From Escherichia phage ECO95 1-6-1: DNA of 1,875 nt. The stretch lies in sequence record OR845638.1. One strand, given 5' to 3'. A program made the translations under genes and the position numbers. The notes below the pieces were generated by a model. It saw only the letters and a list, made by a program, of their open reading frames with translations. It was not told where the DNA came from and did no database searches. The first letter of the stretch is position 1, and the number at the start of each line of letters is the position of its first letter. Below, in pieces: positions 1,686 to 1,714 of this stretch.

Positions 1686-1714
1686 ATGATTTTTATATCA
1701 TCTAAAAAGATGAT
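1686..1714. promoter_or_regulatory. Palindromic element ATCATC-N6-GATGAT with an additional upstream ATGAT half-site (candidate dimeric regulator site)
   Basis: ATCATC (1697-1702) and GATGAT (1709-1714) are perfect reverse complements separated by TAAAAA. ATGAT also occurs at 1686-1690, giving ATGAT-N6-ATCAT with the first arm. The element lies about 95 bp upstream of the ATG at 1807. Confidence 0.3.

Follow-up and report, generated by a model that had tools for sequence, protein, structure and literature searches.

The window, i.e. the whole 1,875-nucleotide stretch of DNA analysed here, corresponds to the chitinase/type 10 secretion locus of Salmonella enterica (STM0014-STM0018). It encodes a LydA-type holin (chiH, positions 28-372, plus strand), a GH108/PG_binding_3 muramidase (chiP, 433-966, minus strand), a 147-residue ToxR-like activator (chiR, STM0017, 983-1426, minus strand) and the first 23 codons of chiA, which starts at position 1807 on the plus strand. 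The divergent chiR-chiA intergenic region (1427-1806) spans 380 bp, with a G+C content of 33%. Hundreds of S. enterica contigs encode this exact regulator protein, by a gene that adjoins dnaK-dnaJ and is divergent from that of a 699-residue GH18 chitinase; a LysR-type gene (STM0014) is also present in the locus. The putative cargo gene proposed at position 1807 on the basis of the sequence only is chiA, coding for the GH18 chitinase that is the cargo of type 10 secretion. Megablast searches of complete Escherichia coli genomes with the whole window yielded no match, indicating that the locus is absent from this species.

STM0017 is a membrane-anchored ToxR-like activator that was named ChiR by Krone et al. 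in 2023, who also reported its transmembrane helix (PMC10109510). In that work, ChiR overexpression was sufficient for chiA promoter activity and the presence of ChiR was necessary for induction, deletion or overexpression of the LysR-type gene STM0014 left chiA unaffected, and chiA was silent in LB. The chiR mRNA rises strongly on induction (PMC10109510, PMC13284979), and reporters of chiH (holin) and chiP (muramidase) are likewise ChiR-dependent according to a 2026 paper (PMC13284979). Neither of these two studies mapped a ChiR binding site or the chiA start site; the term 'binding site' is absent from the text of the former, and 'binding' from that of the latter. The involvement of the adjacent regulator, which had been suspected from the sequence, agrees with the published role of ChiR as the chiA activator (PMC10109510).

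A family profile built with 11 ChiR homologues and compared with solved structures retrieved the ToxR DNA-binding domain as the nearest match (8b4b, 8b4c and 7nmb; E about 3e-5). The Pfam Trans_reg_C signature was matched by four of the 11 homologues when they were scanned singly, and a Pfam search with the ChiR sequence alone returned nothing. The ChiR alignment shows a hydrophobic C-terminal segment, and the regulator thus harbours both an OmpR/ToxR-type winged-helix domain and a single transmembrane helix, as do members of the ToxR-like class. The invariant residues L72-T73-Q74 of ChiR align with the LTQ motif of ToxR, in which Thr77 and Gln78 make base contacts (PMC10629549). Past its predicted transmembrane segment ChiR comprises about three residues (HIH), and it is therefore essentially devoid of a periplasmic sensor domain, which makes control through chiR transcription or a partner protein likely. 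Of note, Salmonella and Citrobacter encode paralogous ToxR-like regulators, probably of the STM0029/STM0031 type, close to the bcf fimbrial region and without an adjacent chitinase (L041, L042, L045, L046 and L048).

The palindrome ATCATC-TAAAAA-GATGAT occurs once in the window, at 1697-1714, and extends to 7-bp arms separated by a 4-nt spacer: ATCATCT (1697-1703), AAAA and AGATGAT (1708-1714). Its centre is located 101 bp, and its 3' end 93 bp, upstream of the chiA ATG (1807). The sequence-only reading had detected it correctly and had set its start at 1686, a position that belongs to a separate ATGAT (1686-1690). It had also reported ATGAT cores in 13-bp direct repeats, TAAATGATATTTA, which are found at 1568-1580 and 1590-1602; the first core is indeed at 1571-1575, the second, given as 1594-1598, was off by one and is at 1593-1597, and a third ATGAT is present in the same area at 1586-1590. 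The exact palindrome pattern is expected 0.03 times in the window, in a test that is post hoc. Of 2,000 dinucleotide-preserving shuffles of the 380-bp intergenic region, 28% contained a perfect palindrome whose arms were 7 bp or longer and whose spacer did not exceed 10; the region itself holds two other palindromes of that grade. Because so many shuffles do as well, the palindrome is not significant by itself. The ATGAT core is not significantly enriched over the whole window (11 observed versus 7.2 expected), and it is so in the intergenic region (6 versus 2.3, P about 0.02), as is RTGAT (8 versus 3.5, P about 0.0125). With 201 RTGAT observed versus 114 expected in 36 orthologous intergenic regions, the recurrence of the core noted earlier is above chance, with an approximately 2-fold enrichment of RTGAT both here and in the orthologues.

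A scan of one genome per species identified 44 loci with a ChiR relative, 39 of which code for a chitinase N-terminus divergently from the regulator. Comparison of 31 orthologous chiA promoters, by alignment of the closer set and anchored inspection of all, revealed a strongly conserved block, RTGAKnnnnnGTGATTAGCCATT, equivalent to positions 1710-1732. It contains a candidate ChiR box of PchiA, ATGAT-GTTTT-GTGATTA (1710-1726, plus strand), organised as a tandem direct repeat with a 10-bp phase. The tandem box is located 82-93 nt from the chiA ATG in the 31 genomes, which represent more than 15 genera, including Salmonella, Klebsiella, Kluyvera, Superficieibacter, Enterobacillus, Dryocola, Siccibacter, Scandinavium, Chimaeribacter, Yokenella and Trabulsiella. 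The right arm of the palindrome, AGATGAT (1708-1714, plus strand), holds the distal half-site ATGAT (1710-1714), at which most of the 31 promoters have RTGAK, and it is the sole part of the palindrome inside the broadly conserved block. The motif comparison across homologous intergenic regions that had been suggested earlier thus places the right arm within a widely conserved motif, with mirror symmetry in some lineages only. The palindrome as such, which had been regarded as the unit, has to give way to the tandem direct repeat RTGAK-N5-GTGATTA.

A weak -35-like hexamer, TAGCTA (1725-1730, plus strand), can be read from the sequence. It abuts the proximal half-site of the tandem box and is separated by a 17-nt spacer from GATTAT (1748-1753, plus strand), the predicted -10 hexamer of PchiA, located 23 nt downstream of the proximal half-site. 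The former is TAGCCA in most genera and is conserved as GTGATTAGCCATT, and the latter is conserved as GGATTATGG. These elements predict a chiA transcription start near 1760, which would place the tandem box at about -50 and -40; the palindrome's left arm would lie at about -60 (-63 to -57). Both the Shine-Dalgarno sequence (1795-1800) and the N-terminal 72 residues of ChiA are conserved across genera, which favours the start codon at 1807.

In published dRNA-seq data for strain 4/74 (PMC4643027, S1 Table, Dataset 3; the SL1344 coordinate is the window position plus 16060), the table of Srikumar et al. 2015, which covers macrophage-expressed start sites only, has no start site in the chiR-chiA intergenic region. 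An 'internal' chiA start site is found in this table at 17964, equivalent to window position 1904 (plus strand) and hence beyond the window, 97 nt inside the 699-residue frame and upstream of the start of the shorter SL1344 chiA annotation (18083). STnc3200 starts at 16493 (minus strand; window position 433), where chiP has its stop codon, and extends into chiH in the antisense direction, and STnc3210 starts at 17025 (plus strand; window position 965), at the chiP start codon, antisense to chiR. We also observed a G+C-rich hairpin, CGCAG-AACGAG-CTGCG, at 1760-1775, where the predicted chiA mRNA would begin. Nearly all orthologues have a hairpin 43-51 nt before the chiA ATG, with stems that vary yet stay complementary (ACAGC/GCTGT, GTAGC/GCTAC, GTAGG/CCTAC, CGGAGC/GTTCCG). 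This stem-loop may stabilise the 5' end or serve as a target of regulation. RNAalifold found no consensus structure for the chiA leader, the stems of the various clades being out of register in the MAFFT alignment, and the leader hairpins were instead found sequence by sequence.

The same kind of box is found at two other promoters. On the chiR side, ATGAA-ATAAT-GTGATTA (1545-1561, minus strand) forms an inverted repeat with 1710-1726, at 76% complementarity. It is followed 24 nt on by a conserved TACAAT (1521->1516, minus strand), and the box is conserved in Salmonella, Klebsiella and Kluyvera. The Salmonella sequence upstream of chiH, just beyond the window, contains ATGAT-GTGCT-TTGATTT, with TACACT 23 nt farther on. 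Klebsiella, Kluyvera and Superficieibacter likewise have the box, a 22-24-nt gap and a TACACT-like hexamer. The distance between the box and the -10-like hexamer is thus 23 nt at chiA, 22-24 nt at chiH and 24 nt at chiR. For a non-circular test, we used a leave-one-out position matrix derived from chiA-side sites only and scanned each locus of approximately 6.4 kb on both strands. The best non-chiA match was upstream of chiH and in the chiH orientation in 11 of the 31 genomes, the short target interval representing about 0.5% of the positions scanned, and in the chiR upstream region in three others. With this chiA-derived matrix the Salmonella chiR-side box scores below threshold.

At all three promoters, half-sites with a spacing of about one helical turn are located upstream of, or overlap, the -35 region, as positioned from the predicted starts. 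The matrix matches and the published ChiR dependence of chiA, chiH and chiP indicate a site common to the promoters of the regulon. Our main argument for regarding this element as a ChiR box is that it is oriented and found at a fixed distance from -10-like hexamers at three promoters of one published regulon. In Salmonella, the chiH and chiA promoters also share CCTCATTTTTA[C/T]G, 23-24 nt upstream of the distal ATGATG (positions 11506-11519 of locus L001 versus 1676-1689 of the window), and their similarity thus extends over approximately 55 bp, beyond the tandem box.

In Salmonella, Klebsiella and Kluyvera alike, the chiR promoter has the layout ATCAT-N9-ATGAR-N5-GTGATTA. The ATCAT in it is the ATGAT of the first TTAAATGATATTTAA unit (1571-1575) read on the opposite strand, and this ATGAT is the inverted partner, at N9, of the distal half-site on the chiR side. 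With respect to the chiR-side box it has the position that the palindrome's left arm has with respect to the chiA-side box, and the earlier idea that one protein might recognise ATGAT in several arrangements is plausible. The central 'direct repeats' themselves are two palindromic units, TTAAAT-GAT-ATTTAA, at 1567-1581 and 1589-1603, the first of which reaches 8-bp arms (AATTAAAT/ATTTAATT). Their arms are kept across genera. The conserved feature is the frame TTAAAT-N3-ATTTAA rather than an ATGAT core as had been thought, TGA being mostly kept and the final T varying. The 13-mer TAAATGATATTTA formally fits the LysR T-N11-A dyad, with two copies 22 bp apart, and the pair of units could be the entry of an upstream signal into the chiR promoter. 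Farther downstream, AGATGTTGTTTT at 1640-1651 is a near copy (92%) of AGATGATGTTTT at 1708-1719. The aligned position in Klebsiella, Kluyvera and Superficieibacter harbours a direct TGATG 74 nt upstream of the proximal half-site, and 1640-1651 may represent a further upstream half-site.

The left arm of the palindrome, ATCATCT (1697-1703, minus strand), contains an inverted ATGAT half-site (1701->1697) and is lineage-restricted. It is invariant in nine Salmonella sequences, including those of subspecies arizonae and diarizonae, and is part of a 50-bp block (1677-1726, plus strand) with five RTGAK-like half-sites, at 1677-1681 (inverted), 1686-1690, 1697-1701 (inverted), 1710-1714 and 1720-1724. 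With 2 of 50 columns variable among the nine sequences, this block varies less than any other part of the intergenic region; its flanks, 1604-1676 and 1727-1747, vary at 44% and 57%, respectively. No variable site is present between 1677 and 1708, and one of the two variable columns (G1709C) is within the palindrome. Counterparts with the same symmetry centre were identified in Superficieibacter (CATCAC-N8-GTGATG), K. ascorbata (TCATC-N6-GATGA) and, in a weaker form, UBA5654. In Superficieibacter, C:G replaces the T:A pair found in Salmonella, both arms having changed with the symmetry maintained.

No left-arm partner was found at this centre in Klebsiella, most Kluyvera and the distant genera, nor is the left arm present in PchiH, which in Salmonella carries TAATATGG where PchiA carries TATATCAT, ATGATG and CCTCATTTTTA being common to both and almost equally spaced. 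Of about 15 independent lineages, only about 4 have inverted partners whose arms reach 5 bp or more, a weak excess over chance, and such arms share the same centre only in Salmonella, Superficieibacter and K. ascorbata. The dyad conservation of a dimeric palindromic operator is thus not seen in the orthologous promoters. A strict helical phasing test of the upstream half-sites across genera showed no fixed positions beyond 0 and -10; other recurring positions are -74 (6 genomes), -23 inverted (5 genomes) and -43/-44 inverted (6 genomes). As a feature that Klebsiella, most Kluyvera and PchiH lack, the left arm is not essential to the mechanism in general. It is plausibly an auxiliary half-site outside the conserved core.

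We propose that the palindrome probably represents two opposed half-sites inside the operator through which ChiR activates the chiA promoter. The core of this putative operator would be the tandem ATGAT-N5-GTGATTA (1710-1726), abutting the weak -35 and 23 nt upstream of GATTAT, and the right arm of the palindrome would be the distal half-site of the tandem pair. Two ChiR monomers bound at about -50 and -40 might recruit RNA polymerase to this promoter with a poor -35, in the manner of OmpR, PhoB or ToxR. The left arm, ATCAT on the opposite strand, would provide an auxiliary half-site about one helical turn farther upstream. Additional ChiR monomers may occupy the upstream half-sites at 1697-1701, 1686-1690 and 1677-1681, which should be roughly on one face of the helix, given centre-to-centre distances of 9-13 bp. 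Membrane-tethered ChiR molecules, several of them on a single face of the DNA, would stabilise occupancy, open the A+T-rich region and displace H-NS-type silencing. As to the earlier suggestion of an activator or repressor site, the position upstream of the predicted chiA core promoter suits an activator; a repressor role is experimentally excluded for both adjacent regulators by the work of Krone et al. (PMC10109510).

The same grammar would operate on the other strand at the chiR-chiP promoter, with an inverted site, N8-9, a direct site, N5, a direct site, N23-24 and the -10 hexamer. The copy of the box on the chiR side implies positive autoregulation of chiR, which would fit the strong increase in chiR mRNA after induction and the need of chiP for ChiR. 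This succession (inverted, direct, direct, then -10) was recognised after inspection of the data. Direct ChiR binding, the start sites, the function of the left arm and the role of H-NS are what we infer from these analyses, and ChiR could also act on chiA indirectly.

It is rather unlikely, although worth serious consideration, that only the tandem box is functional and that the left arm is a neutral, A+T-rich chance mirror of the distal half-site, leaving the palindrome without a role. The frequency of equally good palindromes in the shuffled sequences, the lack of the left arm in Klebsiella, most Kluyvera and PchiH and the varying positions of upstream half-sites across genera would all agree with neutrality. 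However, neutrality sits poorly with the absence of variable sites at 1677-1708 in nine Salmonella sequences whose flanks vary at 44-57%, with a shared symmetry centre in three further lineages, in one of which both arms have changed, and with the equivalent inverted site at N9 in PchiR, conserved across three genera. We regard as improbable that the palindrome is the operator of another dimeric regulator or nucleoid protein acting with or against ChiR, such as STM0014, IHF or H-NS at a nucleation site. For the LysR-type protein STM0014, the presence of its gene in the locus is offset by the lack of effect of its deletion or overexpression on chiA (PMC10109510). In addition, the palindrome is 18 bp long, and its centre lies between two bases; this even length makes a symmetric T-N11-A impossible, in contrast with the odd-length, 13-bp TAAATGATATTTA units, which do fit that pattern. 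The IHF consensus is WATCAA-N4-TTR. The minus strand of the palindrome, ATCAT-CTTT-TTA, matches it in part, but the match is imperfect and of a kind common in A+T-rich DNA. A region with 33% G+C and A/T tracts might attract nucleoid proteins, and the silence of chiA in LB would fit silencing (PMC10109510); against any such operator, the dyad is not conserved across genera. Other regulators were considered by eye against consensus sequences and rejected: for CRP, TGTGA (1719-1723) has no TCACA partner; for PhoP, the second half of TGTTTT-N5-TAGCTA is poor; for FNR, the order of the half-sites is reversed; and for SlyA, TTAGC is a half-site only.

It is very improbable that the palindrome forms an RNA hairpin, be it an attenuator, a terminator or a leader structure, in a transcript starting farther upstream. 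The predicted fold (-8.5 kcal/mol, z = -3.15), followed by GUUUUGUG, and a promoter-like match, TTGAAA-18-CATGAT, at 1561-1590 would be compatible with such a structure. However, promoter-like matches in the window number 6 versus 4.8 expected by chance, and the conserved -10-like hexamer is downstream of the palindrome. The stem is A/U-rich, with two G-C pairs out of seven, and a terminator scan does not call it, unlike the G+C-rich transcribed stem followed by a U-run of intrinsic terminators and attenuators. It is not kept across genera, whereas the different hairpin at 1760-1775 covaries, and an Rfam search with a permissive E-value yielded a chance snoRNA match only (E = 0.59) and none for the palindrome. 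Our preferred reading of the palindrome is as part of a putative array of ChiR half-sites, like the one that ToxR occupies at toxT.

A broader model, which we put forward tentatively as a possibility short of an expectation, is that the 1677-1726 block and its mirror on the chiR side constitute a bidirectional 'ChiR grammar' of at least three half-sites. A sensor-less, membrane-tethered regulator would thereby autoactivate chiR-chiP and fire chiA and chiH, with the central TTAAAT-N3-ATTTAA pair serving as shared inverted half-sites and/or as the entry of a mucin signal. If true, it would amount to a self-reinforcing switch explaining the all-or-none induction of Salmonella type 10 secretion. 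ChiA is an invasion-promoting chitinase exported by holin/muramidase type 10 secretion, and ChiR is the master switch of this system. A conserved box with defined positions at three promoters represents a directly testable candidate operator, suggests positive autoregulation of chiR and can be used to find more ChiR targets in Salmonella, species of the Klebsiella oxytoca group and related genera.

The proposed organisation resembles the ToxR operators of Vibrio cholerae toxT and ompU, in that ToxR also is a membrane-anchored winged-helix regulator, matched by the ChiR profile (E = 3e-5) and sharing the LTQ motif of the recognition helix. In both cases, tandem and inverted half-sites are spread over about 50 bp of A+T-rich DNA, ChiR binding to them being a prediction. 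In older work, the ToxR motif was given as TNAAA-N5-TNAAA. It is described in PMC10629549 as an A/T tract with one fixed T, unlike RTGAK-N5-GTGATTA. At toxT, several ToxR monomers bind over about 53 bp, some as tandem and some as inverted repeats, whereas ToxR acting alone binds close to the -35; at ompU it is near the -35 that it binds to recruit RNA polymerase. ToxR also competes with H-NS (PMC10629549). ChiR differs from ToxR in being essentially devoid of a periplasmic domain, with three residues past its transmembrane helix.

The chiA tandem box, which abuts the -35, also has the layout of the PhoB, OmpR and PhoP boxes, which replace or abut it. These consist of two direct repeats with a 10-11-bp phase that adjoin a poor -35 and precede the -10 by 22-24 nt, an arrangement that is classic among winged-helix activators. 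Unlike these regulators, ChiR is membrane-bound and has no receiver domain, the repeat sequence is different, and the extra inverted half-site is not typical of their boxes. The quasi-palindromic Cad1 site of E. coli is another site with dyad character recognised by a ToxR-like one-component regulator, CadC, with which Krone et al. compared ChiR (PMC10109510). However, CadC has a large periplasmic sensor domain and an unrelated target sequence, and at chiA the dyad is lineage-restricted, the direct repeat being the conserved part. Finally, RoeA of the YeRER region in Yersinia entomophaga (PMC10101115) is a small, receiver-less PhoB/CadC-like regulator encoded next to a holin/endolysin cassette that releases chitinases and toxins, with a long, repeat-containing regulatory intergenic region; the likeness drawn here is one of description, and the RoeA system is lytic, in contrast with that of ChiR. 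The gain from our analysis is thus specific to Salmonella type 10 secretion and conceptually ordinary: ToxR/PhoB-like activators that act through phased half-sites are well known, and what is new is the predicted operator.
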